From Schmidtea polychroa (taxonomy: Eukaryota): DNA of 63,726 nt. Shown here piece by piece: positions 16,601 through 56,700 of this stretch. The DNA is taken from assembly GCA_044892525.1 (NCBI GenBank), contig CM097885.1, forward strand, positions 46,810,001 through 46,873,726, given 5' to 3'. Both the position numbers and the translations under genes were made by a program. The notes beneath the pieces were generated by a model that did not search any database, was not told where the DNA came from, and worked only from the letters and a program-made list of their open reading frames with translations. The first letter of the stretch is position 1, and every line of letters starts with the position of its first letter.

Positions 16601-19600
16601 AGGATGTAAAATAGAGAATAATAGTTGCATATATTTATCTCTACCCAATACACTAGTATGAGGAACCAGTTCTTATCAAATATTGAATAGCACTATTGTG
16701 TGTATTGGTTGACAAATAGAATTTATTTGTTTAGTAAATGTGAAATTATGCATTGATCAATAAACCCAAATATCTAATATTAGATATTTAGTGTTCTGAA
16801 ATATGTTAATAAAAGTTTTTCATTAATTATCATGTATATTTTGCTAACTTTTCACAAACAAAAAAGACAACACAGGTTTGTCCGTTTGGTATATATATTT
16901 ATGAACAAAAATATAATAAAAATCTTTACAAAAACACCAAATTTAATTTGCATTTCCACATTATTTCACAAATTAAAAAATGACAAGATAAGTAGATAGA
17001 TGAAATATAAAATTAGAAAAAACAATGAAATACATGAACAAAAAACCGATTAAGATTACTTAAGTTTTTTCGCTGTCATAATTTGTCATTATACACATCT
17101 GGTTGCGAAAGACTGTTTCAAAATCACTATCGTTTATCGAAATGTTTTGTTCTGTTACAAAAGCCAGGTTATCCGGGTGGTCTCTTCAACAAGATTAGGA
17201 TTTCCTAGAACTGATTGGGTGTTTCGTTTGTCAGTGAATTATATTATTAAATCCGGTTTTTGATAACTCATTGTATAATTTTTCCGAGGAGCAATACAAT
17301 ACTTCAGATTATGTTAGAATTATCCATCTCTTGCGACAATGGAATTGTTTGTCAGGAAATGATTTTCTAATTTATTAGCAATTAGAGTTTTAAGTTAAAA
17401 CTTTTAACCGTTTTAAATCAAAATTGTGTAAAAAAGATAATTAATAATTAACGAATTATAACTGTTTCTCATTAAAAACATCAATATTCCATATAAAAGT
17501 TAGCAATTCTAAAATAGCAGCTTACGAACTACTCGCAACATTTCAAATTTGCTTTAGAGTCGGGATATATTATCCCAATGGTATTATATGATGAGATAAT
17601 TTATTCCAAACGTATTTTTTATATCTTTATGTTATTTTTTTTGACGAAAAAATGTAATACCTGTTTAGTAAAATAACACGATTAAGAAAAGATAATCGGG
17701 GACTCAAAAAGTTAACAAATTTCAAAATGATAGATTAATTAAATACTTTAAACGCAAATGTTTTTTGTAGCAATTTATTTGAAATATTTAAGTACTAATG
17801 AATATTATATTCTCTGGTCATAACAATAATTAAATAAATTACGAGTTACATTTTATTTATTTTTCACTGAACAAAAAAATTTAAACTGATCAATGAATCG
17901 AAAATTCGGATTAAAGATTTTGCGAAAAATTGTTAATAATTCATATAGCTGTGTTCAAAATCAGCGCGCTCTTATTTTTCTAATGAATTAAAAACTGTGG
18001 ATAAAAATAAGTAACTTTAATACTTAAAATAAAATCATCAAATTTTCAGAAATTGGTTATTTTTCACGGATTATAGCTACCCAACCCGAGAAGCATGAGC
18101 GCACATACTTCTTGGGTGTAGTCTTTTTAAAAAAAAGGATAATTGGCTATTTTTTTAATAGTTTTCGAACTCTCATACATGTTTCACACTTTTTAAAATT
18201 TCACCACAAATTTCAAAAACAACAAGAAACATTTATATTTATATAAGATTCACGTCAATATAACTATCGCAAAATTTTCAATGGTTTTTATTTACATTTC
18301 GTAAATTTAACGGAAATTTGTTTGACATCATGAGACTCGATACGAATTGATTTTTTGTACAGAAATATTTCAAATAAATTCAGATCGAGGGAACAGAATT
18401 AAAATTTTCTCCATCGTAAATTCCAAATTTTCTGTCCCTCGATTCAGAAGTACTTTTCAAAATATTTAACATTGGTTGCAGAATTCCTGAAATATTTCTC
18501 GTTGATACACTCAGCTTTGCTTTATTTCCTTTTGCTACTTGAAATTCTTTCTGAACTTTTTGATCAAGATGAAGAATCTTGTTTGAAAAAGGAAATCTTA
18601 ACTGAAAGTAAAGTGGAGTTGTTTGCATTTTCCAGTCTATTTGACATAATCTTATGATAAATGGTTTTAAATGATGATTTACTAGAAGAAGAATGTATTT
18701 TATTCAACTAAAACTATAAAAAATGGTGAAATTTAAGGATAATTTTGAATATATGAAATGAATATCAATCCAAATATTTACTCAGTACTATTTTTTTAAA
18801 TTTAGCTTTTTAATTTTGTTTTTTAACAAAAATCTTTATAAAATTTAAAATTCTTAAAATCTTATGGATTAATATGTTGATAAGGAAATTTATTTTAATG
18901 CGCATTCTAATTAAGAATTTAAATAGAAAATTTTTTTTTCACAATTTCTATAAATTTTCTTACAATAGATTGCGCGCGCATGCTCCTCGGAGGGAGACGG
19001 TAGTATTTTAATAAATAATAAAATTTCGCGATTTTATTTATTAAAAGCTTTAATGTTGGGAGTTTTATAGAACAAGGGATTTCATATCACTGACTTCATT
19101 TTGAAATTGTAATTACATTTAAAACATCACTAAAAGCGAAATATATTTTATTATAACTCAAACTGTTATCTTAAAATTGACATCTTGTAAATTATTAGTT
19201 TATATATAATTTTTACACAATGTTTATTGTAAGTATTAGCATCAGTTTCGAACACCGATAATCAATAGATCCACTTAAACGAGCGGAAGTTTAGTGCTTC
19301 AAATTTTATAGGTCATTAATAATAATGAAGTTGATTTGATCATTTTAATTTTACTTAAAGATATATTTCAAGAGCGCTAGAAAGCATATGTGGAAGCAAT
19401 AGTGAAAAAATAATCTGGACTCAGGAATGTGAGAAAGCTTTCGAAGAAATGAAAATGGCGTTGACTACAGCGCCAATTCTCGTATTTCAAGATTTCAAGA
19501 AAGAATTCATATTAGATACAGACGCAAGCTTTGATACAATTGGAGCTGTATTATCACAAAGAGATGAAATGGGGCATAAACACGTTATTGCATATGGACC

Positions 19601-22600
19601 CCATGCAATGAGTAGCCATGAAAGAGAATATTGTATAACACGAAAAGAGCTTTTGGCTATATATTATTTCTGTCGCCATTTCAACCATTATTTATACCGT
19701 AAACGGTTTGTTTTGCGCACTGATCATAAAGCAATAACTTTTATGTTGACGACAAAGAAGCCTATAACAGCACAGTTCCAAACGTGGATAAATTACTTGA
19801 GCAGTTTAGACATAAAAATGGAGTTCAGGAAAGGTACGGCGCATACAAATGCAGATATGCTGTCTAGAAATACATGTGGCAAATGTGTACAATGTTTGAT
19901 GGACCATGATAACCCCAAATCAGGGCGATTAAAAACTAGATTGTTAACATTGATGACCGAAAATAATGGAAATGAATGGCAGAGATAATGCAGAAATACA
20001 AGATATAAAAGATCAAATAAATGAAAGGAAAAATAATAAATATATATTAAAAAGAAATATTATCTATACCAATCAAAACAAAATATGGATACCAGAAACA
20101 AAAAAACGAGAAATGATTAAGGAAACACATTTATTATTATGCCACGCAGGAGTAGAAAAAGTTATGAAATATAATAGGAACAATTTTGATATGGAAGATT
20201 TGCTAAATGAAGTAAAAGAGACTATTTCAATATGTGAAGCATGTCAGAAAAACAAAGTTTTAACTACAAAGTCAAAAGAAAAAACCCAAGTAATTCAAGC
20301 TTCAGAACCTATGGAGAAAATATACATGGATATTTGCGGTCCATTAAGAGAAACCTTCAGAGGAGAAAAATATATTTGTGCAATAATCGATCATTACAGT
20401 AAATACATATCTCTAACTCCTATTAGAAAGCAAGATGAAAATACAATAAAGGCAGTTTTTTTAAATAATTGGATATTGAAATTTGGAGCCCCTAAGGAAC
20501 TACATGTTGATTGTGTAAAGAATTTTGAAGCAAATAGTATTAAAGAACTAGCAAAGGCAGCAGGAATTGAGTTGATATTTTCGAGTCCGTATCATCATAA
20601 TACTAATGGTGTAATTGAAAGACAATTTCGTACTATAAGAGACTATATTAACGCGTAACTCAGAGAAGGAGTTAAAAAAGCTGGGCAGAATTAATATCTG
20701 ATATAGAATACGTTTTAAATGCGACAGCTCAAAAAACTACTGGAGTGAGTCCAGTAGAAATTATATTTGGGAGAAAGATTAATAGATCGCAATGGCATAG
20801 TAATAATGAAGTGGATAGAAGTGAAATCATGCGGAAATTAGAGGCTAAAAGACAGCAAGCGAAAGAAATTGGCACAACTAGGAACTTAGAAGTGGGGGAC
20901 AAAGTATTGGCGAAACAACAAATTAGGAACAAAGATCACGAGAGATATGAAGGACCATACACAGTAATAAAACGAAATCATGAAAGAAGTTACTTATTAA
21001 CAGACGAAAACGGGAGGAAAATAACGAGGAATATAGAAAAGTTAAAGAATTTTAAAGTAGGGGGATGAAAGGAGTTAGTAAATCTCTATATAAAATTATT
21101 ATGGTTAAATGGTAGAAGTGAGATCAGTTAGTAGAAATAATTATTTCTGTTAAATTTTTATATTTAAATTCTATATTAAATTATATCATATTATATTAAA
21201 TTATATTAAATTAAATCAATTAAATGTATAACCGGTAATTACATTAATATTAATAATTATCACGCCTCGGTGTTTAAATACGCTAGTAAACGGCGCAATT
21301 TTGAAGTTGTTATTAAAATAAATACTTGAAGAAGACTTGAATTTAATTTCGTCTAACAGGGTAAAAAATATTTTATCAACTTTTAATATAACATTTTGAG
21401 ATCAATTTTGAATTTTTATACATGTTTGAATGTAAAATCAATGATTTTTAAGGTTTAAAATTAAAGAGTATTAGTTTATTTGTATAAGTTTACTATATAA
21501 TACAATATCAAAATATACCAACACAATAAAGGACACTTGTGCGTAAATATTGATTAATCTCTTTAACTTATAAAAGAAAATAAATGTTTTTATTTTAAAA
21601 TAAGAAAAAAAACAGACAAAACTTCTAAAAATAATATTTGTAAGATTTTAAAATTATTTGCATTGAAGGTTTTTTATTTGTTTTACTTTATATTTCAATG
21701 TTGGAAAATTCGTAATTGTTTGTGTTGAGAGAATTGTGGATTATTTTACAATATACAGGTAATCCCCAAAGAATTTGTTCCGTGTTCTTTTAAACCGTGT
21801 TGTTCGAGACTACAAAAAACGGAATTTCCGTTTCAAGTGTGAAAATATAAAACTAAAAATTTTATTTTTTGAATTCAATTTAGTAAACACTTCAAAGAAA
21901 TCTTGTATTACATAATTCAAATTAAATTTTTAATTAGTTTAGAAAAAAAATTTTTATCTTAAATTTTTATTATCAAAATAAAACAAAAAATTTGCAAGCA
22001 TATCTTTATTTTGTTAAAATGACATTACCATGCCACCTAGTCCTTATCACTGGAGTCATCTGGTAACGTGATTCTAGTATATTTTCTTGAAAAATGACAT
22101 TTGGAGATTATATTATATCAAATAATAAATATATTTTATTCTTTTTCCATATAATTACTTGAAAATCGTGTAGTTTGAAACCGTGTAATTCGGACCAAAG
22201 TATTCGTGTTCTTCGAGGGTTGATTTTATTATTTAAAATATTTTTACCATCCTAAAATTTGCGGTTAAGTATATCTAAAAATGATATCAATGTTTGTAAA
22301 TATGATAAAGGCAACGGTTTAGTTATTTTGGAACTTGACGTCTACATTAGAAAATTAAATAATGTTTTATTAGCTCTACAGCTTATAAAAGTGGAGACAA
22401 CCGTATTAATCGGAAGTTACCACCAACGAAGGATGAATTGTTTTAGTTAAAACTGTTGAAGGAATTATCAGATAAGAAACATATGGACGTTGACTTAGCT
22501 AAGTCTATTCAATCGAAAGGCTCACAACCAGCAAAACGTCATGGAATACCTAAAGTGTGGTATCATTTGATGTGCGTAGTCTATTTTCGAATGTTCCACT

Positions 22601-37549: not shown

Positions 37550-40500
37550 TTTAAATATTAAATTTAAACTAACTTAATTTTACCCTATTAGACGCAACAA
37601 CCCCAACGCCAATGTACCTTGGCACGGCCCTGTATAAATCTTTTTTTATAAATAAATAGTTAAACCTACATGGTAACGATTTAATTATAAGAAGGTGCCA
37701 CTCAAAAATTCATTTTACGATATATTTTGACAGTTTTCCTGTCATCATCAGGTAGGATATAATAACTATATAGATTATAGATTCTTGAACAAATTTATGC
37801 ATTATAAGAACTTCTTTCAATTTTCACCTCTGATTTCTTTTCAATTGACATTGCATTTATTTAAACATTGACTATGAATCAGTAAAGATATAAAAAACAT
37901 CAATATCTTTACTGATTCATAGNNNNNNNNNNNNNNNNNNNNNNNNNNNNNNNNNNNNNNNNNNNNNNNNNNNNNNNNNNNNNNNNNNNNNNNNNNNNNN
38001 NNNNNNNNNNNNNNNNNNNNNNNNNNNNNNNNNNNNNNNNNNNNNNNNNNNNNNNNNNNNNNNNNNNNNNNNNNNNNNNNNNNNNNNNNNNNNNNNNNNN
38101 NNNNNNNNNNNNAATTTTAATTTGTTTAACTTTTAAAATTTTACTTTATCTAAGAAATTGTTTTCTAAATAAATTTCAAATTTTTCATTTATAATAAATC
38201 CTCTTTGTATAAAAATAATCTTCAGTAATGAAATTCTAAAATCAGTTAACCTTCTCCGTGTAAAAAATAATGCTGATATTTATAGTGAGCCGTTCTATTC
38301 CCACAAAAACGGTTACAAAATGTGCCTTCAGCTTCATCCCGATGGATTCAAAGCTGGAAAAGGGACACATCTTTCTGTTTTCTTTTTCATAATGCGCGGT
38401 GAAAACGATGCACTTTTGCAATGGCCTATGAAACTGGAATTGACATCTTGCTTTATTGTCGAATATATTCAACAAATATACGGAGAGGGTTAAATATCAA
38501 ATATGCAAAATAAACACCCACTATAAATTTACTTATTGAAATAAAGTGTACTTATTATTACACATTTTTTTCATTTTATTGTATCAATTTAATTTAAGGG
38601 ATTTTTCCGTTTTTCATTATTCCTTATTTTAAATTCAATTTCCTCTAACACTGTATTAAATTTTATGATTTATATTTAATAATCTTTATAATTGTCGGTA
38701 CAAATATTTACACTGAAATATACATGCACACGCTATCATTTATCATTAATAATTATCTTGATGTTTATTGCTTGCATAAATTAAGCCGCAGCGTAGATTT
38801 TTATAAAAATTTTCTTTTTATCACGCGATTTTAAATTAAATCTTTAAATCTATATTAAATTAAATCTAATAAATCTATATTTAAATTAAATCTATTTGAA
38901 ATATGCTAGAAAATGGTCATTGATTAAATAAATTTTATTATTGACAAATTCTTTATTTTAATTAAGCAGATTAACAGTGAATTTCGTATTTTCTTCCTTG
39001 TATTATGTCGGTAGTTTTAGTTAAGCAATTAAAATTAAACAAGAGTTTTGTTTACAATTTAAACACGAGTTAGACGGACAAATTGAAAAATACTTCATTA
39101 CAAAAATAATTACTGGAAAATATCACGAAAAAGATTTTTTCAAATGACTGTCGAAAGACAAGTTTTATTTAGACGCGTCTTAACAAAATACGAGAGGATT
39201 GCTTCCTATTGAAATTATTTTGAATCATAAAAATAAAGTTACAATTGATTCTAGATAAAACCTTAGAGTTAAATTAGAATTAAATTAACAGTTGAACACA
39301 GTGTAAAAAGAACTATTATTAGAATAATATATATGGATGAAAATAAATACAAAACACTTTGAAATGTGATAAATTTTTCATTTGTAAGGAGAAAGATGAT
39401 ACTTTGAGATTGAAATACTATTAGGCAAAGACAATTAAATAGCTAAAAAGTTGGAAGAGTTTTCAAGGTGGAAGAGTTATCTATTTATTTATTTTATATA
39501 TTATATTTAAAACTTTAATATTTAATCGAATTAATTACTGAATTTGAAAAAAGGTAAGAAAGGAAAAAAATTTTATAATGAAATAATTTATATTTTACTG
39601 TGACACATTGCTACCCCGACAAGATTCTATTGCTCCCTGAGGGAACTTTCGACCCTTTTATCTAATCTGATGAATTCAAACAATCAACAAATTGTTGTCA
39701 TTGACTATTTGTCAACAAATTCACTGATAACAATACGTAAACGATTCACTTAAAATTTTAAAATTATTTCAAGCAAATTTGTAAATTTTTCAATAAATTT
39801 TTTAAGTAAACATTTATCATATTAAATTAATTAGATTAAACATTTCTAATTTTGCGTTTTGAAAGTTATATTTAAAGAAACAAAAAATAAAAATAGAATG
39901 GACGCATTAAAATATTATTGAGACTATCACCGTTTTACATGTTATTAATTATGTTTCATTTAACTTTATAAATTGATTTTTCTTTGATTAATTGCTGTTA
40001 TATAGATAATAAAATTCCAAGAAAAATGCGCGAGTTCTTATGTGTAATAAAAGTTGCTAATTTAAATATTTGTTTTAATAAAGTGAAACATTAAAATATT
40101 TTTAAATTTTTTTTTTGAGAAAATCAAAATATTTAAGTTACAAATTTATGAATAAGTAAAAATGACTTATAAATAGATAATAATTATTATAAGAAGTAGT
40201 GTGTTTATATCCCTAACGACCACAAGCCTCCCACTGTTTTCATGTTTTATACCTATTTTTCCCCCATAAACGTAAAAAAAACACTTAAAACCCCTAAAAA
40301 CCTATATCTTTTAATTTCTTTATTCTGAAGACATTTTGGTTTCAAAATAAAGACTTAAAAAAAACAACAAAAATATTAAAAAAACAACAAAAATATTAAT
40401 AAAACGGGGAAAAAAATACTGATAAAACTATGAAAAACGTTTGTCGGCTTGCGGTCGTTAGGGATATAAACACACTACTTGAGGATGTCAACTAGCAAGT

Positions 40501-43500
40501 TGCTATTTGACTAATTTATAATTTTATAAATCTTAATCTTGAAGAATAAAAAATTTTATGAAAATAGTAAAACTGCTCTGAGAGGACAGTGGTATTTTTT
40601 TTTTTTTTTTTTTCACTGTCCTCTCAACAGTTTTTTTTGATCCGGATCATTTTTTTTTTTTATTTCAACCTCTTTCGTTTATCAAATCTCTTCCAATATA
40701 CAAGCTGGCCAGACTTATATATCAGAATCAATTCGATAATAGCAGCACACCTTATTATTCGCTTCTCGCTCACGAAGTCGATTTCATCGGCGTTTTAAGT
40801 GTGCTGCTCGAAAGTACAAATGAATTCGAAAGCGAATCCGAAAGAGGTCCGAAAACAACCAAGAAATAAATGTGCACATTATAGAATCGATCCGGGGGTG
40901 TTCGAAAGACTGGTGGCGATAATTACCGGTTCGCCACCATCACCCGTTTCAATATTTTTTTTTTCATATTTATGTTTAAAAATTAATTAATTAATAAATA
41001 AATAAATAAAATAAACAAGATTTATTTCCTAAGATACCCACACCATTTTTCAATATTATTTTCAAATTTTTAATATTATTTTATGTTGAAAAAAAAACTA
41101 ACCTCAGACGTGATTTGAACCGCTAGCATTTGAACCACTGTGCCAGTCTATTCCCACTGCGCTATCGGAGTTCGGATTTTTGTCATTTTTTAAATTTTTA
41201 ATTAATAAAAAAATAAAATAAAATAAATAAAATAAAAATAAATAAAATAAAATATAAATCTAAGATACCCACACCATTTTCAATATTATTTTCAAATTTT
41301 TAATATTATTTTATGTTAAAAAAAAACTAACCGTAGTTAGGATTTGAACCGCTATCCATTTGAACCACTGTGCCAGTCTAGCCCACTGCGCTATCGGAGT
41401 TCGGATTTTTATCATTTTTTAAAATTTTATTATAAAAATGAATAATATAAATCTTAAAATTCAAGAAAAAAATAAATTAAATCTTGATTATAATAAAGAA
41501 TTTACTCATGAAATCAAGAAAAATGATATTTTAAAAATCTCGCCAACTTCAGGATCTATTGCAAACTTAAATCGTAGGGGTGATATAGTTTTTCAATCTC
41601 TTCAAACATCAAACCCAATAGATATTTGTAATGCCAAATTATATTATAAAATTGAATTAGAAATTGAAGCAAACAAAGATATAACCATAGAAAACAATTT
41701 CTTTCCAAATTTATTCTCCAACATGAGATTAAAACTAGGATCATCAGAAATTGAAACTGTTTTACATCCAGGAGTATATTCTACAATGTTAAATTTTATT
41801 TTGACTGGTTGTGATTATAAAAATGAATATGGTGAATTAACAGGTTGGATTCCTGATGTTAATAAAGGAGATTTAGATAAAGATGGTTTAGATATAAATT
41901 ATGCTTACTATAAAAGAGCTGAACTTTATAAGTTGAAAAAATTTGAAGGTTATTTTGAATTAAAACACTTGTTCGGATTCCTTCAAAACTATAACCGGGT
42001 GCTCCATAATGTTTTTATAGAACCCATCTGTAATAGACTAGAAGGTGATAAAAGATTGTTCTATGGAGCTGCAGATACAAAAGCTAAATTAAAATTATCA
42101 ACACTTGAATTGCATATACCTGAATGGAGATTAAATCCACATTCTGAAATCAAACTCCTTGAAAGATTAAATTCCAACAAATCTATAAATGTAAATTATT
42201 TAAATCGAATCTGTAGTGAATTTAGTATGACAGAGGGTTCAACATATTCTATAAAGGTAGCAAATTTAGCATACCGACCAAGATATATCTTGATTGGATT
42301 CAAAGAAACAGATTCATCTTTCCAAAAAAATAACAATCTATTTATTCAAAAGATTGGAGATGATAATATAAAAACAATCCAAATTCAATTAAATAGTTCT
42401 TATTATCCAATAAATAGAATGGAATTTAATATTGAAAATAATGAAAACATATTCCCATATCTAAATTATATTGAAACATGTTATGATTTCAAAGTTGAAC
42501 CGCAATTAAGTTTAGAAGATTTCAAAAATTTATATTCTATATTTTGTATAAATGTATCAGACCAAGATGATCGCCTAGCTATAAATAATGTTGATGTTAC
42601 ACTTCATATAACAAAGGATTCTAATTTTAAAGCTAAAGTATATACATTAATATTAGAAGAAAAGAAAATAGAAATGAAGTTGTATGCTGGAAAGATTTCA
42701 ATTATTGAAAATGTTAGGGGAGATTCTTCATAAGTAGATTCCCCCATAAAAAAACTTTTAAAATGAGTAAATATTGGACATGTGAAAGTTGTAATTGTCA
42801 AGTTACAAGACATCACAAAGCAAGTCATCTCAAAACTAAAAAACATACGAGAGTTGATATTACAGGAGGTGATCTACAATCTTCAAAAACAACATCTAGA
42901 ATCTTGAAACTTTTTACTAATGAAAAATATCCAGGTGAAAGACATTTATTCCATCACAACTATACTGGACCTGGAACAAGATTAGATATTAGATTAGATG
43001 AAAATAATAATCCTAAACAAGGAGAAGAACCAATAAATAGAATTGATCAAGCAGCTTTAAAACATAACATTTCTTACAACTCTGAAGATCTTAGAGATAA
43101 ACATGTTGCTGATGTGAATTTAATACATGAGTTAAATAATATACAAAATCCATCAAGCAAGGAAAAGATTCAAAGAGCTCTAGTTAAATTAGCAATGAAA
43201 GGTAAGATTTTCATAGGCTTAGGACACAGTCCGATCACCATGGGTGCAAGACTTCCTAGGAAAGCAAAAGATGTTGCTAATAAAAAGATTATCGAACAAG
43301 CAGAGATTGAAAGATCCCTCGAGAGTACAGCCAAGACTAGTTTACAAACCCCAACAGAATCAGAAATAAAATATGCTAATGAATTACACCATGAATTTAG
43401 AAAAAATAAAAAATATTTAAAAGTTCAAGTACATGAAAAAGATCAAACATGGTCTGCTGATTTAGTCTTTATGCCCAAATCATCAGACCCTGAAAAATAT

Positions 43501-46500
43501 AAAATAATTTTAACAGTAATAGATTTATATACAAGATTTGCTTTTGCAAGGTGTTTAGAAAATAAAACAGGATATTCTATTACAGAAGCATTTGAAAATA
43601 TATTTGAAGAATATCAAAGAATTCCAAAATATTTATGGTGTGATAAAGGAACAGAATTTTATAACAAAGTTTTTACAAAGTTTTTAAATGAAAATGATAT
43701 TAAATTATATTCAACAGAAAACGAAGGAAAAGCAGTTGTGGTTGAAAGATTAAATAGAACATTAAAAAATAAAATGTGGAAATATTTTACTGCTATTGGA
43801 AAACAAAAATGGAACAATGAATTGTTACAAAAGATTGTAAATGAATATAATAATGATGTACATAGTTCTATAAAATCAACACCTTTAAATGCTTCCATGA
43901 AGCCTGAAACCATTAAAGTGGTGAATATTGAAAATGATGTTATTGTTGATACAACCCCTATAAAACCAAAGTTTAAAATTGGTGACCGAGTAAGAATATT
44001 TAAATATAAAAATAAATTTGAAAAAGGATTCACAGCAAAATGGACAAATGAAATTTTTATTATAAATAAAATACATTATACAACTCCAATAACATATAGC
44101 ATCATTGATTTAAATAATGAAAAAATATTAGGTAGATTTTATAATAATGAACTACAGAAAACAGATTTTTAAGTCGACAAGCCCTAAAACAAACTTTTCC
44201 ATATTTCAGCTTCTTCTCTATCCAAATAAATATAATTATATTTTTCTTTCCAATGATTATCAACAAACATATCAAACATATTCTTATCAGGTTCAACATT
44301 TGAAAATAAGTCATTATAAATCATATTCTTATCTCGACGATCTAATTTAAAAAATATAAAACAATTGGAATTATTTCTTATAGAGTTTTTATCTAAAGCA
44401 TAATATGTTTGAGATATATAAATAACATTACAATTATTATGTCTACCTCGTGTAAAGTAACTCTTTTGAATCTCTTGATTTTTCATGTTAACAACATCAT
44501 CAAATATAACTAGATTCTTTTTATCTTTAGGAAGTAAATCACAATGCAAAACATCTTCAGGTTTATTAGAGAATAAAACTCTAATCCCATAACCCTCCCT
44601 CTGCCCCTCATCTTCACAGATGTAATCATTTTTATTACTAATATCTGATTCTAAAATCTTTTCCTTGTACCAATCAACCATATCACAAGGATGAAAAACC
44701 TCTTCGGGATATGTATGTTGATTTTTAAAAATATCAATTATTGCTTTTTTAGTTAATTTATTTTCAAATCCACATTTCAAAAGTTGTAATTCCGGTTGGT
44801 TAATGGTTGTAGAATAAAAGATTAAATTATTATAATCCAAAAAACCATCTTCTAATAACATTCTCATAAGAAGAACATTCTTTCCACATCCAGAAGATCC
44901 AATAATTAAGCATCTAAAATTATCAGGAAATACTTTATTATTAAATTTAGATTTATGTCTATTTAAAATTGGTTTCCAAGTATCCATTTTTATTTATTAT
45001 AAAATGACAACACAAAACCCTACAGAGGAATCTTTGCAAGAATTAATAAATTCAAATAAAAATAAATCAGTAGTAATCTCTGGTAAAAACTATTTTATTG
45101 GAATACATGTAAAAGAACAAGTTAAAGAAAAACTAAAGGAAGGAGGGATTCTTCCTCTGGCGGCTTTAATACCTGCAATCATTGCCGGACTATCAGGTGC
45201 TGCTGGAATAGCTGGAGGAATTGCAACTACAGTTCAAAAAGCTAAAGAATCTCAAAAGACAGACCTAGAAAAAGAAAAACTACAAACTGAAATCGAGAAA
45301 ATGAAGGGAGGGAAAGGTCTTTATCTTGATCCTTATAAAGGTCGTGGTTTAAATGATTTTTTAAAAAATCAAATTTCTACATCTGAATCTTTATCTTCAA
45401 AAGATAAAGATGATTTAAAAAAAATATGTAAATCTTTAAAAAATGGATGTCTTTGTAAAATTAAAAATGGTAAAGGTTTATACTTGAAACCCTTTCCAAC
45501 GGATCCTTTACCAAAATGATACCATTTTTAATACCATTAAAATGGTATATGAAGAAAGATTAGCACTTTTAAAAAAATTACAATCAGATCAAGATAAATA
45601 TAATAAAAAAGATACAACTCAACACGCTGAATCTATAATATTAAATGAGGTAATCCAACAACAACAAGGACCAACAATTAAAGCCATAAAAGAGTTAGAA
45701 GTTTTAAAATTTAAAGAGTTGGAAGATAAACAAGATTTAAAAGAATTACCATGGTTGGAAGATTTAAATATAAAACCTCTTATACTTGATCCTAAAATTA
45801 ATGTGAGTTTAAGTAAAACAATTAAACCTACATTTAATATTAATGTTGAAGGATATCAAATAATAACAATTAATAAACATGACTTTCTGTTATATTTAAA
45901 TTCAGAAAATAAATCACGTATTCATTCACAAAATGTTTATAATACTAAACACCTAGATTTTGAATTTACAGATGATTTTTATGGATTAGTTTGTGGATAT
46001 CCCTCAGAGAATGTTGATCTTCTAGAAATTAAAAAATATTTAAATTTAATAGAATTAGTACATGGTAGTGCTAAAGCAAAACATATTCAAGATTTAAAGA
46101 AATATTTAAATAAAAATGAAAGGGGTTATATTGTCACAGAAGGAGAGGGCCAGGGAAAGGGTAAGGAGATAAACCCAATCAATCTTTTTATTGAATTAAG
46201 AAAACTATTAGCAGCTAAAAAAGCAGGACATAATAATTTAGATTCTGATATTTTAAAGATTTCTAAAGAATTATTAAAACAAGGAATAATTTCAAAAGAT
46301 AAATTTAATAAGTATACGAAGTTATAAATACGAAGTTATAAAATATAAAATGACTCCTTCAATATTAGATTTTTTAAAAACATTTGGAATAAATACAAAA
46401 ACAAATTTTGATTTAAAAGATTATGCAGATTATTTAAATTTAAAAATAAAAATATTAATGAATGATGAATTGTCGAGTCTGAAAGAAGACACTCCAAAGA

Positions 46501-49500
46501 ATATCATTATAAATTATCAAAATTCAAATGAAAAAGGATCTCATTGGGTTTGTATATATAATAAATCTATATACTTTGATTCTTTTGGGATTAAACCCAC
46601 TAAAGAAGTTGAAGACTATCTCTCGGACTACACTTTTAATTCTTTACAAGTTCAACCTAATAATACTAAAATATGTGGTATTTTAAGCTTATATGTTTTG
46701 TATAGATTGAATAAATCCAAAGGAGAAGGTTTCACTTCCTTAATCCAAGAAATTTATAATGATTTAAAATCTATACTATGAAAATGGAGCTTCGCAACCT
46801 TCCGGAAGATAATTTAAAAAAAATGGTAAACATAATGTCAGATAAATATTCAAGAACTTTATCTATAAATTCAAAAGAATCAGACTTTACTATAAACTTT
46901 CAAGATTCAATTAAATTAGATCAAAATTTAAATTATGAATTAGGACTATTATGGTTTTGTGCTTATAATACTATTTTTAATATAACTAAAGATAATAACA
47001 TATTTTATTATATAAGCCCAAAATCTACAGATAAGATTATAATAACAATCGAACCCGGAGCTTATGAAATAAAAGATTTAAATAATATACTTTCTAAAAA
47101 AACAAATGGAGTCATTAAAATTAAAATGGATTTACCAACTTCAAAATGTATAATGACTTTAGAGAATATAGGAATTCATTTTCAAAATAATAGTTTCTTT
47201 AGAACAATTTTAGGATTTACACGAAACCATTATATCACACCTGTAGTTGAGAATATAACATCAGAAAATATTATAAAAATAATAAATACAAACACAATAA
47301 ATATTCATTGCGATTGTATAACTGGTTCTTATAATAATGGTAAACAAACAAATGTTTTATATTCCTTTCCCTCAAACACAGTTCCTATGGGATATAAAAT
47401 AGTTGAAAGAATGAATCCTCCAAATTATTTACCTTTATGTAGAAAATATATAATGGATATTAATTTTAAAATTCTTAATCAAGAAGGAGAATTGATTGAT
47501 TTTAATGGAGAAGAGATTTCAATGTATTTACATTTGAAACAGGTTTGAAGATTCATTTTAAATTATTAATAAATGAGTTCTTATATTCCATGTAATAGAG
47601 GTGGTGGAACAATAAAAACAGGGTTTAATACAGAAGAAATATTAACTTTAACAGAAAATAAATATATTAATGAAAGAGGTGATTCAATGAAGGGTGATTT
47701 AATTTTAAATGGACACAAGATAAAAGAATTATCTTTTCCAACTGATGAAGCTGATGCAGTTAATAAGAAATATGTTGATGGTGTTAAAAAATATACTGAT
47801 TTAACAACAACAAGAATTGAAAGTTCATTAACAACAAAAATTGATAATATCGAGCAACGATTTAATGATAAATTTGACAAGTTACAAAGTCTGTTAACTG
47901 AACAAGTTGTAAAGTTAAATACTAGCATATTAAATTCTAAAGATAAACAAATTATGAATACTAAATTTAATACAATATATAATATAATAAATGAGATGAT
48001 TACATCATTTAATAAAAGACTTTCAAATTTAGAGTCTCATACAACACACATTAACACCACACATAGTATTAGAAAAAGAGCTGCTGAATTAGAACAGAAT
48101 AAAACATTATTACCCCATACATATAAACATTTTATAGAACCAAGTTTAATAACAACAAACAGTAAAGAATGGGGTGTTTTTATGGTTGTAAAGATTATTG
48201 ATCCTTATTTCTTTTTATTTGATGATGATAATGAAAAAATGAAATGGTTTGTGAAATGTGATTATAATAGTAAGCTTGAAAAGGGTGATGTTATAATGAC
48301 TAGTTATGATTTACCACACGGAGATTGGTATGTTAATACTCATTCACATGGACTACATAAAGTTAAAAGTAAGAATATTATTTTTAAAAGCACACTTGTA
48401 CAATATATAGATTTAATATTTTATGAAAAAAAGGTTGATGTTGATGAAGTTCGTAAAGCATTGATGGAATTGTATAAAGATATTCTCTCAACAAGAGTTT
48501 CTTTTGATATCCGAGTATTGGTACCAGATGGTGCTCAGAAGAATAAAGTCTTATTTTTTTAATTATTAAAATGGACAAAGTCCAAAAGATGGAAGAAGTA
48601 AGAGAAGAAAAAATTTACCCAGAGGTCCCTCCAGAATTGAGATCATCAGGATATTATTCCGAAGGTCACAAAAGTTCCAAGGCCTCGGCTCCCACAGAAC
48701 TTGAAATTATGAGAGTAAAAGAATTTAAATCAGAAACCTTACATTTACAAGATTTATTAAAGCATTATAAAAAGGTTAAAAATAGATGGAATAAAGGGAA
48801 TACAGTTTTAAAAATTATAGGTTATTCTTTAGGATTTGCATCTGCAATATTAACAGTTATTTTACCCATAACTTTACCAGTTTTAACAATAGCACCTGTA
48901 ATACTTGGAAGTATTTCTTTAGCTGATGGTTTCTTGACTGAAATAGTTTCATTATCTTATACTTCTAAAAAGAAAAGTTTATATCGTGAAGTTTGTTTAT
49001 CAATAGAATTAGGAATCTCTAAATTATTTTTATTTCAATTAAAAGCTTTGGAAGATGGAATCTTAACTGATGATGAAATAATGAAATCAAATCAAATAAT
49101 ACAAGATATTAAAAATAATATTAATAGATTAAAAAGTGCTAATGTTATAACTAATGAATATTCTAAAATAATTAAACGAGAGAAGTGGCTAAAGAATCAT
49201 ACATAAAAAAATTTATTGCCCTTCAAAAGGTTGATGTTGTCACTCTTAAATTAATTGTTGACATTTTTAAAAGAAAAAAATCATTTGATAGAATCTGATG
49301 TTAACTTTTCGAAATTAGTTTTTAGAACCTCCTTATGATCTTTAAATTCTTTATCACTTAGACCTTTTATATATTCAGGATCAGTATTAAAATATTTAAG
49401 TTCTAAACATATAGGATTAAAAACTTGAGAATATAAAGGTTTCTCAATTCTCTCAGGATAAATGATTTCAACATTATAAATATCAAGATCAGTAATCTTT

Positions 49501-52500
49501 GTATCATATAACTTATTCAAACTAGCAAGATTTTTTATTATCGGTATTAAATTATTTCCTATAGGAAGAGTTGTCTTTAAATCACTTAGTATGAATCTTT
49601 TATCATCATAATTTGATAATGATACTTTTTGGGATTCTATCAAGTAAATATCATGCTTTTCACTTTTAAGTTGATGTATTTCATCAATTTTATCTTTATG
49701 ATTTGGATTCAATGTATCTATATAATCTTGATGAGAAAGATTCTTTGCTACACATCTCTGAATTCCTTTACATCTGTTATCCTTTACAGGTTTTTCTTCC
49801 TGTCCGTCAGGTCCTTTAGGGAATATAGGATATCTATGTGTAATGCTTTCTTCTGTTTCTGGGGTTTTAAATATAAATGTATGTTCTTCAAATTTAGGAT
49901 TTGTAAATGTTTCATATGAATATTGTTTAGCACGAATAAATATTCCATTTTCTATAGGAGTAAAAGGTTTTTCATCTTTAAACGAAAATAATTCTCCAGA
50001 TGAATTTATTAAATTTGAAAGTATAGGATTTTCAGAGATATCACTTTGTAAATCGTGAGTTCTTATTGTTAAAAACATTGAATCTGTATCCATTGCATGC
50101 ATTGCTATATTCGATCCATATATAGGTTGTAAGATGTTATAATATGTTTCATACATTTGTAATTTTGAAAGTTCTAAAATTGCAAAGCCAATAAATATTG
50201 GTTTATTATATGTTTTCTCATAATTCTTTAGTTCTACTGCAGTAAGATTTTCAGAAAATACTTGTGCGTTTTTAAATGTAGGCTTTCCTAGCATACGATT
50301 ATAACGGGCTATATCTTTCGGGGTATTTGTTAGGAGTTCAATATGAGTATATTTATCAACATTCTCCATTGTCTTCCCAAAGACTGAATTGTTTAAAAGT
50401 TTATAATTATTGTCTTTTAAAAGGTTACCTTCTCTTTTTGCAATGTTTCGACAACGAATGTTCTCCTCGATGAAAGTCTTCATGAATGCTGCTTGTTTAA
50501 ATCTTATGACACTATGAACTTTTTTTAATATCATTCCTTGTGAAAGATAAAACTGGAGGAGTCTATAGTGACAAAGATAATAAGTTCGATCTGTTTGATC
50601 ACAAAGAAGTTTCATTGTTGGAGGTTTATCTTGTGAGATTTGCCATTCAGAAAGTTCGTTGATATCAATCTTTCTTCTTATAGGAGCTAAAGGGAAATGT
50701 CTTGTTCCTGATTTTATATCATCTGGGTAGTCGAGGTCACATTCTACAAAGTATCCTATTGGAGAATCTTTAGGAGTTGAACGTATTTCTTTCATAAGGT
50801 CTTTTAAGGGGCATTCTTCTTCTGAGGGGCATTCTGGAGGATATATTTCATGAAAGTCACTCATTGGTAAATATTGAGTCATAATTCCTGAATATAAAGC
50901 TGTTGCATCTATATAAAGTATAAATAGAGGATTTTTCATTCCTTCTAATACTTCTTTTAGTTCCTCATTGTTAAGTTTTATATATGGATCAGGGTGTTTA
51001 GAGATTCTTCGGCTAGTAGTTATTGCATTTCTAGCTTTTATTTCTCTATTCCCCATTACTGAAGATACTCCTCCTCTAATGTTTGTTTTAATTTGATTAA
51101 ACATATCTTGGTCGGTTAAAAGATCTATAATTTTATCAGATTCTGGAAGATCTGAAGTTCAAATGGTATATAACATAGTATCCCAAGCTAAAGAAGGAGC
51201 TGTTATATAATTATAAGGTTTAAGAACAAAAGACTTTGTAAATTCTTCAAAGCAATCTGCTAGAATATAAACATCTAGGGATAAGTACATACTTGTATAT
51301 TCTCCTAAAGTTTTACAGTTGAAAAGATCCCACATTTTATTTGCTCGAGAATATTCTTGATTTGTAATATGAGATTTTTGAAGTTGGGAATAGAAATCTT
51401 CTTTCTCTGGTAATTTTGTTTCATTATATTTTTCAAATGAATCAACATAGTCATAGGGATATATTCCTTTTGCTAAGCATGTAGGATATTCTTCTGGGGG
51501 GATATTATTTTTTTCCAAGAATTCTCGAGTGATTTTAAAATTTTCTGCTTTCATTGGTTTAGCTATTCCATCTAGAGACATTTGGAGAAAGTTTAACGAG
51601 TCTATAAATTTTAATTTTCCATATTCAACTGATTTATATTTTTCCTTTGTAAGTCCTATAACTTTGAAAGAGTTTTTAGCATTTTCTGCTAAATGTTTAA
51701 TAAATAGATGTATGTCATAACCAAAAAGATTATGAAATATAACTGGTACAAATTTAGGAGTATGACAATTAAGATTACAATTTCTATGGGCTGCTCCTCG
51801 ATAATTATTTTCCTTTTTTAAATGATCGTGATCTATAACTTTATCATCAGGAAGAATGTCTTGTTTACACATCCAACAGTTGGAAGTATTTTCATATTCT
51901 TGTTGTTGTTGATTAGAAATTTTTTGAGGATACTTTGTTTTTAATATTTTAAATATTTCATGTTCTAGATCATTTATACTTTTAGTAAAATGATTTAAAA
52001 CATCTTCTGAAGTTCCTTGAAATGCATATTCTCTAGATTCTATGAGTTCAGGATAATTACTTTTAAATAATAATTTATAAGCAGATGGTAATTGTTTAGT
52101 TTTTTAACACTATTAGGTTTATTTCTTTTTCTTAGAAAGGCTTTCATCCTCTCTGGTTTCATCTTCTGTTTAGAGGCTTTCCATTCATCCATGAGTTTAT
52201 ATTTTTCTATTATTTTTAAATATTGCATAATTATATCTTGTTTACGATTTATAGATTCAAAGTCTCCATAGACAACTCCTAATGTTTGTAATAAATTTGA
52301 AAAGTTTTTAAAATACATCCTGGGATCTGTAGGCATTCTAATTAAAGCTGGATCATCTTTTTCACAAAATCTTGCATGTTTAATCATAGAGTTTTTAGTT
52401 GTTGAATAATGAAGACATCTTTTACATGTTCCTCCTCCACTAGTTGGATTCTCTGGTGATGTAAAAGCTTGAAAGTCTTTTATTAAAACATAATGTTGAT

Positions 52501-53690
52501 TATTTCCTTCTTCCAAGATTAAAAGATATATCTCCCTCGTGCTATCACTATCAGAAATATAAATTGGAATAATATCTTTCCTTCCATGTCCCCATCCTTT
52601 AACATGTTCATAAATATTAAGTTTAAGATTATTTAGTTTTTCAAATTCTGGAATGTCTTCTAGTTTCATTGGGTGTGTGAATCCCTTGGGAAATATTAAT
52701 TCATTTTCATATTGTTTGTATTTTGAAACTCTTTGAGGGTTTTCAGCTTGAGGATGTAAATATGCAAGTATTGACCACATGAAACATTTGTTATCCTTAT
52801 TCTGTACATTTATAACAACCCTAGATCTAAAGGGTGTTTGAATATAAGATTTAGGATTAGGTGGTAATCCTCTCCAATAATCAATCACTAAAGTTTGGAA
52901 AGAGTTGAATACTAAGTTTGAATCTCCTAATTCATTTTCAACCTCTTCTTGTTTTGCTTCTACTGCTTGAATTATTTCTTTGATGCTTTTATTAAATCCT
53001 CTAGTTGAAAATAAATATTTAAAAGGTATTCCAATTTCAACATCTAAAGGAGTTGTCTTTTCTTCTGGTCCTCTCCAATATTTTGCTTTGATTGTAATTT
53101 TATATTTTATAACATTATACCTTGTTGGTTTATAATTTTTTAAAGCTTCAGTGAAAGAATTTTTAATATTTTTTTTATTTCTCTTTATATATTCTCCAGG
53201 AGTAGCAGGTCCACTGATTTCTGATTGAAATCCATCTATGTGATTAAATTTATCCCAGTTATATTTTTCTTTTTCAACATGATCAGGTTCTCCTTCTGAA
53301 TGACATTCTTCAACGTCAGAATTTTGTTTTTTATTTTTACATTCTTTTAAATGTCTTAAATAATAGAAATTTAGTTTTGTTGAAAAGTTACAATGAGGAC
53401 ATGTAAATATTTCTCTATTTTTCCCGATACAATTTTCAAAATGTTTATTATATCCAGAATGTAGAAATCTTCCTTTACATTTAGTACAAACTTTTGAATT
53501 TGTGTCATTAAGATTATTTTCTTTTAGTAAGTGAGCTTTCGATTTATAGTGAGAAATTAATCCTGTTTTATTTTTAAAAACTTTATTGCAAATATTACAA
53601 TTCATTTTTAGAAAAAATTTTTTTACTGGATACGTTGTTTTTAAATTTTTATATATTTATTTTTATTTTTATTTTTTTTTATTTTTATTT

Positions 53691-53722
<32 letters not shown>

Positions 53723-56700
53723 TTTTTTATATTTATATTCTAGCAGCTTGCCAAGCTATCGACCTGCCAAGCTGTCGACTTACCAAGCTGTCGACTTGCC
53801 AAGACCGCAGCGATTGCATCATCGACTTGACAAACTATCGACTTGATAAACTGGCGACTTGATAAACTGGCGACTTGATAAACTGGCGACTTGATAAACT
53901 GGCGACCTGCAAGTAGTGTGTATCTATCCCTAACGACCGCAAGCCGACAAACGTTTTTCATAGTTTTATCAGTATTTTTTTCCCTGTTTTATTAACATTT
54001 TGTGTTGTTTTTTTAATATTTTTGTTGTTTTTTAAGTTTTTATTTTGAAAGCAAAATGTCTTCGGAATAAAGAAATTAAAAGATATAGGTTTTTAAGGTT
54101 TTAAGTGTTTTTTTTTTACGTTTATGAGGGAAAAATAGGTATAAAACGGGAAAAAAATAGGTATAAAACATGAAAACAGTTGGGAGGCTTGTGGTCGTTA
54201 GGGATAGATACACACTACTATAAGAACTTTTTTTCCAATTTCACCACTGTTTTTCCATTGAATTTATTAAAAAAGCTTGAAGACTATAAATCAGTAATAT
54301 ATCGATGTTTTTGATATATTTACGGATTTATAGTCTTCAAGCTTTTTTTAATAAAATAATAATTAATTTAAACCAATTTTCTATGAATTTATAAAATCTG
54401 ATATTTTATTATTATTACTTATTACTTTTGTTTATCTTTATATTTTTACATTTTTCAGAATGTTTAATCATAACAAATATACCCAATGTTGAATGAAAAA
54501 TTTTGATTAAATTTCAAATAAATAGAAAATTATCTATTAAATCGTAGATAAAGAAACCAAAATTTTGTGAAAGAAATTTGAAAATAATTTTTAATAGTTT
54601 TGTTGAAAAACAGGAACTTAACCAAATTCTTTCTTGATAAACCGTAATTTTGTATTGAACTTCATTTAATCCTTTCGGTAAGTTGCAAACATGCTATTTA
54701 TGACCAAACTATAAATCAAAATTCATTAATTGTTATCGAAGTACGTTCAACTGCAACTACATATTATATATCAATTAACCGCGATGAGCTTTTTTTGAGG
54801 ACATTTACAAAGGGTTAAAATAAAAATACAAAAAATAACAATGTAATTCAAAAATTGATGGAAATTTTGTATTTATCTCGCCCTTATTTAGCCATCTCCT
54901 GATTTTTGCTACGGCTATGTTAATTTCCGTCAAGTCAAAGATAAGTCGATCCGACGAGGATATTTTCAAAAAGTAAATTTCACTACATTTTTTAATTTTA
55001 AATGTCTAATTTTTTTAGTCCGTAGTTGTTTTAAGCCCATTGCCTTTTATTAATTTATTTTATAAAGTATCGGAGTTAGTAGCGCTAGCATATTTTGACG
55101 ACGGAGAAATCGGCCTGGAAGTTGGTATGAAATATGATGAATAATTATTGAAATGAATCTGAACTATAGTTTGTCACAATATTGATAAATGGGGACCGCC
55201 AATGGCCGGACAGTTGATCAATCTTCCTTTGAGAGGAGTTGTTCTACAAACGCAAATTCCCATTAAAACTGACTATGTAAAATGTGAACCAAATGGAAAG
55301 GTGCGAATTTCGAAATCTATTATTCAGGACATAGAAGACAATGTTAATTCTCAACTTTATTTATCGATTTGTATTTAGTTGTAAAAATTTTGCAGGAGGA
55401 TCAGAAATTATTAATAGATAATTCATCAATTTGTATAATTCCATCTGTACATAATCAAGACTGTTTTACCGCTTTTGGAGCTGTAGTTAGCCAATTGCAA
55501 TTACTCTGGGAGCTCGTCTTAACCAATCAAGTAAATATTTCTGCATTTATTCCGTTACAGTAAATAAATTACTTATTAACTGTCATACTATTGAATTGAT
55601 TATTATACAGTCAATAATATTCTATTAATATTATTGACAGCTGGCATTTGAATATTTCACTCAATATTTCTATTTTTGAAGTAGAATTTATAATTTCTAT
55701 ATTGCTTGAAATTCAAATGTAATTTCTAACTTGTTTTTTGTCTGAATTCTAATGGAATTTTACCTTTGAAATAATATGATTTATCTTTATCAAATTGGAT
55801 TTAATCTATTACCATATTTGATCCCATAACAAATGGAGAAATATTACATTAATTGAAAAGGTCTGTAATGTCATCTATCAAAATGTAACTGCAATAAACA
55901 TGATAGTTGATTGATTCATCTGATTGTTTTTGACGTAACATAAGTGTATCATAGAAATTATTTCAATGATAATTGTCCAATTATATAATACACAATGCAA
56001 TTTATACCATTTTAATTATTGAATTTTTTTCATGAATTCATATATAAGTTTAGTGCAGAATTCTATAACTTGAAAGTTATTTGATTATATTACATTTTGA
56101 TAATGTTGCTTTTTATTATTGTTAACACTTGGGATGGGAAAAAATGGACATTATAGTAAAATGAAAGAAAATTCATAAACCAGTTCGAAATGATATGTTT
56201 TATTCAAAGCACGCTTGTATTAGTGAACTTCAAGTTGATGCTCTTCCATCATCTTCACTGGTCTTTCAGCGACAATATTGGATCTGGGAATATCCAGAAC
56301 AGGCGGCTTCTTAACCCATTGGGTTTCGAATCATTTTATCGCATTATGACATTCAAATGTTAAAATAGCAGATGTTTTATTAAATAATTAGGTAAAAACT
56401 CACTCAGTGGAAATAATACTCCAAAAATTTCTTAACTGAGCATCATATGAAAGCAGAAAGAAATAGGCTATTAGAGTAAATTTTGCGTGGGAGTTCCATC
56501 TGTTATTTAGCAAAGGAACCTTCACCATTTCTAATCGGAAACTTACCTGACTTCTGATGGAATTTATACGCTTCAAACACTCCAAAGGGAAATCGAACAA
56601 TGGAACGCGACAAGGTCGTTTTTTTATTAACATCATCAGATCCTGTGCATATTACAATATACAATATTTTCTTTCCTTTTTTGAAGCAGTTTTCAATCTA

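Follow-up and report, generated by a model that had tools for sequence, protein, structure and literature searches.

A Polinton/Maverick element in the genome of Schmidtea polychroa encodes a C2H2-like zinc finger, a parvovirus-VP1-type phospholipase A2 (PLA2) and an RVE integrase in a single open reading frame (ORF) of 469 amino acids. By analogy with known systems, this ORF probably represents a virion polyprotein that is organized in a gag-pol-like manner and matured by the protease of the element. The element lies in a stretch of 63,726 nt (GCA_044892525.1, contig CM097885.1, positions 46,810,001-46,873,726, forward strand), which is called the window below. The interpretation is carried by the domains themselves, by a frame that is continuous across the family, by conserved glycine motifs in flexible linkers, and by a -1 arrangement with slippery heptamers in relatives. 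From these we infer, by comparison with better known viruses, cleavage, packaging, frameshifting, a role in entry, and a coupling of membrane penetration to integration.

Domain architecture of the fusion protein

The ORF (42763-44172, plus strand) does not contain any internal stop codon. The finger, the ITGG↓D motif, the PLA2 domain and the integrase, which the initial annotation had joined in one frame, were all recovered (Table 1). Pfam did not report a zinc-finger match for the finger of the fusion ORF. Of the 120 top homologs, 12 have a similar finger and 11 show a C4 ribbon pattern, and in locus L043 the domain DUF5679 occupies this position; judged by these sequences, the finger is an exchangeable N-terminal module. 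The calcium-binding loop YxGPG of the PLA2 is intact (residues 67-71). The integrase had been described as intact, and indeed its residues D233, D294 and E328 are all present. In an alignment of 100 proteins, G69 of the calcium-binding loop, H101 of the PLA2 dyad and the three integrase residues are invariant, and the Asp of the dyad is found in 98 proteins. Pfam did not find a C-terminal chromodomain (Chromo) in the integrase of the fusion ORF; Chromo matches are present in L049, L009, P0136 and P0180.

The structure of the fusion protein was predicted with AlphaFold, using 100 homologs in the input (mean predicted local distance difference test score, pLDDT, 87.1; predicted template modelling score, pTM, 0.59). 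Only two segments of the model have a pLDDT below 50, namely residues 30-36 and 153-165, and these predicted flexible segments coincide with the two glycine motifs that are putative cleavage sites. The best fold matches of the model were foamy-virus intasomes and a MELD virus integrase, and only the integrase part was matched. A sequence search of the PDB with the PLA2 part yielded a weak match to capsid-protein chains with an E-value of only 0.46.

The window copy is decayed. The catalytic His-Asp dyad of the PLA2 is broken at residue 102 (43066-43068). Among the 113 top homologs with the PLA2 active-site motif, 112 have an intact dyad. The contigs from all three runs that cover codon 102 differ from the window there. 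In addition, the reading frame of the polymerase B gene is broken near 52.1 kb and interrupted by an in-frame stop codon at 51159-51161. The PLA2 of this copy is probably inactive, as judged from the broken dyad, and the polyprotein model describes the family and not the present activity of the copy.

Conservation of the continuous frame in the family

Among the best 120 of 575 protein matches, 105 carry both Pfam labels (PLA2 and rve), and 113 contain the PLA2 active-site motif. To offset the bias of a search with a fused query, the homologs were re-ranked on the integrase alone. Of the top 30 proteins in this ranking, 26 include a PLA2, three begin in frame within the last PLA2 helix, and one begins at the integrase. 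A tree of 256 integrase domains placed the window in a clade of 101 members (support 0.998), of which 95 are fused and 6 are unassigned. The frame is likewise open in P0002 and P0186, the closest siblings. The comparison with sibling copies and homologs, which the initial annotation had proposed, accordingly revealed a continuous PLA2-rve frame.

The initial annotation had also asked whether most copies have a stop codon after the GLG motif. In the window clade 95 of 101 proteins are fused, but many distant relatives do stop after a GxG motif. In these relatives the integrase is apparently reached through a -1 frameshift (see below), an arrangement in favour of the polyprotein idea, and a test for stop codons is too simple.

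A single-protein integrase scan of viral contigs yielded zero relatives, and tblastn against phage records found nothing. A DNA pattern scan returned 17 stretches, with PLA2 or integrase matches only in two contigs already in the set. A scan for viral PLA2 domains gave zero new PLA2-integrase junctions, as L131 and L132 duplicate L002 and L003.

Putative cleavage sites

At the first site, G35 is conserved in 86, G36 in 77 and D37 in 88 of the 100 aligned proteins. Where the leader has at least five residues, 72 of 83 proteins carry a GG or GxG motif (GG/GxG) ahead of the conserved Asp, but 0 of 5 proteins that start at most four residues from the Asp do so. The presence of the motif with a leader and its absence without one fit a site for leader removal. 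A cut at ITGG↓D would free only the zinc finger, whereas a cut at GL↓G (residues 152-154) would release the integrase. The maturation of a virion polyprotein by the viral protease, as initially proposed, is kept as the best model and has a precedent in mavirus, but ITGG↓D would not be the site that releases the integrase.

At the second site, K148 and G152 are present in all 100 aligned proteins and G154 in 81. Of 97 parsed fusions, 88 carry the GG/GxG motif at this junction (three pattern mis-parses were corrected by eye). The adenain site has been given as (M/I/L/N/Q)xGG↓x or (M/I/L/N/Q)xGx↓G, and the mavirus protease cleaves GG↓X and GX↓G (PMC6048507). Both motifs of the window protein fit the looser mavirus pattern. 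The stricter assignment of ITGG↓D to the adenain type holds for the pattern in this copy, but its P4 residue is not kept in the family.

A second type of integrase fusion was found in which the upstream partner is the protease. Seven in-frame protease-integrase fusions were identified (P0136, P0170, P0177, P0180, L009:2740-4248, L055:274-1803 and L065:128-1471), and they span three lineages in the integrase tree. A GxG motif precedes the integrase in 7 of 7 of these fusions, versus 2 of 37 tails of stand-alone proteases. As far as motifs can tell, this GxG is better evidence for processing than the PLA2 junction motif.

Two side observations concern proteins of this kind. The cluster of P0180 has 215 members. 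PLA2X (a PLA2 with a pX-like tail) forms a junction of a comparable kind with the protease. Among eight distinct split loci with overlapping frames, seven are -1 (L004, L006, L010, L017, L104, L136 and L163), all of them with A-rich heptamers, and L011 is +1; L005 and L007 are fused in frame. PLA2X-Adenain products are listed beside PLA2X in the supplement of PMC11071296.

The -1 arrangement in distant relatives

In distant relatives of the window ORF, the PLA2 frame stops and the integrase overlaps in the -1 frame. Loci were gathered by integrase motifs (113 in total), and a PLA2 was located directly upstream in 33 of them, giving 34 scored junctions. Of these, 8 were fused, 17 were -1, 5 were +1 and 4 had an in-frame stop. 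All four in-frame-stop loci and four of the five +1 loci carry other breaks. When only split junctions with both domains intact were considered (n=14), 13 were -1 and 1 was +1. L002 and L078 were dropped from the -1 count, because the break lies inside the start of the integrase, and L079, L084, L098 and one further L066 copy were dropped owing to other breaks or truncation. Two further -1 loci, L160 and L162, came from a separate PLA2 scan; L161 was omitted as near-identical to L160, and L159 proved to be +1. The final -1 set thus comprised 13 intact loci (11 plus L160 and L162).

An in-phase slippery heptamer of the type X XXY YYZ is present in the overlap of 12 of the 13 loci, versus 0.77 loci expected from the background (41 in 9182 codons). 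It is present in 0 of 9 intact in-frame junctions, the window among them. When L002 and L078 are counted as fused, 2 of 11 in-frame junctions have a heptamer (p = 0.0005); related loci are not independent, and the p-values overstate the case. In 11 of the 13 loci the integrase frame lacks an ATG before the first catalytic Asp. A strong hairpin is predicted just downstream in 5 of the 13 loci (z at most -2.8; range -2.9 to -4.5), which belong to three lineages. In one 12-bp stem all pairs are kept across three distinct sequences, two of the pairs by compensatory change. The -1 loci occupy at least three positions in the tree and are intermixed with fused ones.

With respect to single loci, L066:1-6005 has three tandem units of about 2.6 kb, each with PLA2, -1 integrase and protease and with an identical junction. 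L159-L163 are Polinton-like PLA2 and integrase loci whose contigs are filed as bacterial or archaeal metagenome-assembled genomes and probably are mis-binned eukaryotic viral DNA.

A proposed gag-pol-like polyprotein model

In retroviruses and long terminal repeat (LTR) retrotransposons, the integrase is the C-terminal part of a polyprotein, Gag-Pol, that also contains virion proteins or the protease. Gag-Pol is often made by a -1 frameshift at an X XXY YYZ heptamer that is followed by a structured region, and the viral protease then releases the integrase. We hypothesize that the Polinton family uses a similar strategy. The zinc finger, the PLA2 and the integrase would be made as one chain, which would be loaded into the capsid, most likely via its virion-protein part. 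The cysteine protease of the element could then cut at GG↓D (residues 36/37) and GL↓G (residues 153/154). Once released, the PLA2 would assist the escape of the particle from the endosome, as in parvoviruses, and the integrase, also freed, would come in with the genome and insert it.

In the wider family the linkage is achieved in three ways, namely by an in-frame PLA2-integrase fusion as in the window clade, by what seems to be a -1 frameshift from the PLA2 into the integrase, or by an in-frame protease-integrase fusion. With the in-frame fusion, PLA2 and integrase would be produced in equal amounts; the -1 form would yield mostly PLA2 and little fusion protein. We lean slightly towards a still broader view, namely that the gag-pol strategy of retroviruses has evolved convergently in a large group of animal Polintons. 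The integrase would form the tail of a virion protein, either the PLA2 or the protease; a programmed -1 frameshift would set its amount in several lineages and in-frame fusion in others, and the capsid protease would free it at a glycine motif.

If this is true, the integrase is a packaged enzyme, which argues that the elements form infectious particles. An integrase that is made only in attachment to a membrane-penetration protein and freed by a capsid protease would make little sense for a purely intracellular transposon, and the arrangement would therefore be genomic evidence for a particle stage. Particles of Maverick-Polintons have not yet been observed according to a preprint from 2026 (10.64898/2026.06.19.733378). 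The model would also affect annotation. Many annotated Polinton integrases would have a wrong start, and the -1-type integrases would be called from a wrong downstream start or resemble pseudogenes.

Weighing of alternative explanations

Several observations weigh against the polyprotein model. The system is known here from genes alone, and the protein set was gathered with a fused query, which favours fusions. The P4 residue at GG↓D sites is M, I or L in 4 of 58 cases and N or Q in none; at the junction it is Phe in the window and Lys in 61 of 100 proteins, so that the adenain residue is not conserved. The GG/GxG motif is absent from the junction in 9 of 97 fusions, and some GxG sites of mavirus stay uncut (PMC6048507). 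G152 is also conserved in stand-alone PLA2s; among the 23 short ones that end 2-8 residues past it, 15 have GG/GxG. As junction glycines are common in stand-alone PLA2s, the junction motif may be partly structural. The closest PLA2 domains from a search of short proteins (P0257 and P0258, 69% identical) stop at the junction and lack an in-frame integrase, and in many related elements the integrase stands alone and starts at an ATG of its own. These cases indicate that the fusion is not required. Concerning the -1 loci, a significant hairpin is absent in 8 of 13, and the covariation in the conserved stem does not exceed that of a pair shuffle (129/500). Lastly, Met160 lies in a strong Kozak-like context (ACC ATG G).

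Some of these points would be explained if the PLA2 and the integrase stayed joined or were cut at the first site only. The junction glycines would then cap the last PLA2 helix, and the fusion would serve co-expression or co-packaging. The missing adenain P4 residue and the glycines of the stand-alone PLA2s agree with this explanation, as does the shortness of many linkers, 19 of 94 of which have at most six residues. The GxG directly before the integrase in all seven protease-integrase fusions, which is rare in stand-alone protease tails, argues against it. The same is true for the repetition of the junction motif two to three times in some linkers (P0006, P0027, P0081 and P0107). A fusion that stays joined, or is cut at the first site only, is considered unlikely.

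A separate question is whether the -1 arrangement reflects programmed frameshifting at all. It might have arisen from one-base losses in A-runs, by decay or assembly error, or might be bridged by slippage of the RNA polymerase. Every one of the 13 junctions has a stretch of 6-8 A. The two +1 loci whose domains are intact (L076 and L159) both have A7, and A-run heptamers also occur in L002 and L078, in which the break lies just inside the integrase. However, 12 of the 13 loci have their heptamer in phase, and heptamers are rare or absent at in-frame junctions, irrespective of how L002 and L078 are counted. Moreover, 27 other homopolymer runs of at least six nucleotides in the same genes are unbroken, although the loci were selected as intact. 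The shared junction of the three tandem L066 copies and the hairpins in three lineages also speak against this alternative. A non-programmed origin therefore seems improbable, and it would leave the in-frame fusion in the window unaffected.

It could also be envisaged that the working integrase is translated alone from Met160, from a separate or spliced transcript, in which case the continuous frame would have little weight. Met160 was confirmed at position 43240, at the junction of PLA2 and integrase. In addition to the favourable start context, the segment is common to the sibling P0186 and is covered by a contig from run X12 (43188-43550) with two other letters and zero gaps. However, the segment is absent in P0002, which is 93% identical. 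The parsed linkers (n=94) vary in length from 2 to 72 residues, and only 15 of them contain any Met. Seven ATGs lie between the start of the ORF and Met160, and Met160 occupies the hydrophobic position in a second, degenerate copy of the junction motif, comparable to the repeats in P0006, P0027, P0081 and P0107. Judged from these sequences, a separate start at Met160 is unlikely, and that it would account for the working integrase is very doubtful.

The last alternative, an accidental fusion by loss of the PLA2 stop in this copy only, could invoke the decay of the copy elsewhere and the close PLA2s that end at the junction, but it is rejected with near certainty because the fusion is family-wide (P0002 and P0186, 113 of 120 homologs, 95 of 101 clade members).

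Relation to known systems

The occurrence of PLA2 in Polintons and its likely packaging have been published (PMC8502044, PMC4642659, PMC3671162, PMC5803895, 10.64898/2026.06.19.733378). The window element shares with animal Polintons and adintoviruses that encode PLA2X (PMC8502044) the protein-primed polymerase B (pPolB), the rve integrase, the A32 ATPase, the adenain-like protease, the double-jelly-roll capsid, the terminal inverted repeats and a parvovirus-type PLA2 that is thought to be entry-related. However, PLA2X is a PLA2 with a pX-like tail and is described as a gene in its own right (PMC8502044), whereas in the window the PLA2 continues into an integrase that has no chromodomain, and the pX-like protein is encoded by another ORF. 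An integrase with a C-terminal chromodomain characterizes adintoviruses according to PMC11071296, and in this respect the window element differs from them.

The same two-domain product as in the window ORF has already been labelled. At least two "PLA2-Integrase" entries, Adinto15303 and Adinto6405, are present in the supplement of PMC11071296. The accessible text of this paper, including the adintovirus section, does not discuss such a product, and it proposes -1 frameshifts for Penton and Hexon-Adenain only. For Adinto13074 (PMC11071296), PLA2 and integrase are annotated apart, and in the listed sequence the integrase starts past the first catalytic Asp. A PLA2-integrase fusion was not found in the accessible parts of PMC10748475 and PMC11161782. 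A PLA2-to-integrase frameshift, a protease-integrase fusion and processing of a Polinton integrase were not found in the full-text literature, a search that did not extend to subscription journals and Repbase. While the in-frame fusion has thus been labelled before (PMC11071296), the frameshift, the protease-integrase fusions and a processing at two sites appear to be undescribed.

A precedent is mavirus. Its native virions contain MV02, which is the rve integrase, together with MV13 in two fragments; MV13 is a predicted alpha/beta hydrolase (PMC6048507) and has also been listed as a lipase (PMC3671162). Mavirus shares with the window element a related cysteine protease, and its integrase and cleaved lipase are found in the virion (PMC6048507). 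The mavirus lipase differs in that its fold is unrelated and its gene is separate from that of the integrase.

The similarity to Gag-Pol is an analogy of mechanism, not of membership. The window element is a double-stranded DNA element with a jelly-roll capsid, a cysteine protease and a phospholipase as the partner of the integrase, and it lacks a reverse transcriptase. With the PLA2 of the parvovirus VP1-unique region (PF08398), the window PLA2 shares the motifs of the calcium loop and the catalytic helix. The parvovirus domain is tethered to the capsid protein, in contrast to the window PLA2, which is tethered to the integrase and has a broken dyad in this copy.

The element and its neighbours

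Several hallmarks of a Polinton/Maverick are present in the window element, namely pPolB, a DDE integrase, terminal inverted repeats with a target-site duplication, a double-jelly-roll capsid protein, an A32-like ATPase and an adenain-like protease (Table 1). The terminal inverted repeats have lengths of about 290-310 bp, and the 6-bp duplication is inside the range of 5-8 bp known for Polinton/Maverick elements (PMC10748475). A Pfam scan of the protease did not yield a match; relatives of P0136 have weak Peptidase_C5 matches. This protease is proposed to be the maturation enzyme of the element. For the penton, the ORF 46778-47548 is a candidate by eye that does not have a Pfam match.

Table 1. 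Positions of the element, its genes and the parts of the fusion ORF in the window
Feature	Position	Strand	Remarks
Polinton/Maverick (adintovirus-like) element	40195-54219	.	14,025 bp; ends AGTAGT...ACTACT; inverted repeats, ends read directly, gene set
Target-site duplication ATAAGA, left copy	40189-40194	+	6 bp
Target-site duplication ATAAGA, right copy	54220-54225	+	6 bp
Left terminal inverted repeat	40195-40481	+	90% identical to right repeat (column mean, including flanks and gaps)
Right terminal inverted repeat	53910-54219	-	
Major capsid protein (double jelly roll)	41438-42733	+	PF21738, E 1.4e-25; immediately 5' of fusion ORF
Zinc finger-PLA2-integrase ORF	42763-44172	+	469 residues; Pfam and translation
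C2H2-like zinc finger (C7, C10, H22, H28)	42781-42846	+	beta-beta-alpha unit in the model, pLDDT 85-91
ITGGD, putative cleavage site 1	residues 33-37, 42859-42873	+	column conservation; pLDDT below 50 at residues 30-36
Parvovirus-VP1-type PLA2 domain	residues ~37-154, 42871-43224	+	PF08398 at residues 61-140, E 1.7e-7, above cut-off
Junction motif KIFIGLG, putative cleavage site 2 GL↓G	residues 148-154, 43204-43224	+	
Variable linker with Met160 in degenerate junction-motif repeat	residues 155-203, 43225-43371	+	
RVE integrase, D233/D294/E328 intact	residues ~204-469, 43372-44172	+	PF00665 at residues 224-316, E 3.3e-12
A32-like packaging ATPase	44184-44987	-	PF04665, E 2.5e-8
pX-like core protein, separate gene	45004-45519	+	PF05829, E 0.003, below cut-off; six GG/GxG matches
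Adenain-like cysteine protease	46350-46781	+	His, Asp and Cys motifs; BLASTP E 1e-11 to protease part of P0136
Protein-primed polymerase B, three pieces	49281-53605	-	PF03175, E 1.2e-7

GG/GxG motifs cluster in the putative core proteins (45004-46327 and 47573-47611), which have 6, 3 and 2 matches; the capsid, penton-candidate and 48571 ORFs have none. The motifs in the putative core proteins are further candidate sites for the protease.

Each terminal repeat has inverted ends of its own (arms of 47 nt in the left repeat, at 40194-40480, and of 80 nt in the right repeat, at 53912-54219) and could fold on itself. Just inside the right repeat, a tandem array of a 16-bp unit is located at 53744-53909, and the left side does not have a counterpart. 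Two imperfect tandem copies of about 229 bp are found at 41047-41482, just 5' of the capsid gene. Words resembling polymerase III boxes were seen by eye on their minus strand, and ARAGORN and Rfam identified neither a tRNA nor a known RNA in these repeats. Outside of the element, the window contains an uninterrupted ORF for an amiloride-sensitive sodium channel (749-2320, minus strand, PF00858) and fragments of the RNase H and integrase of an LTR retrotransposon (19449-20658, plus strand), as would be expected for an animal host with AT-rich DNA.

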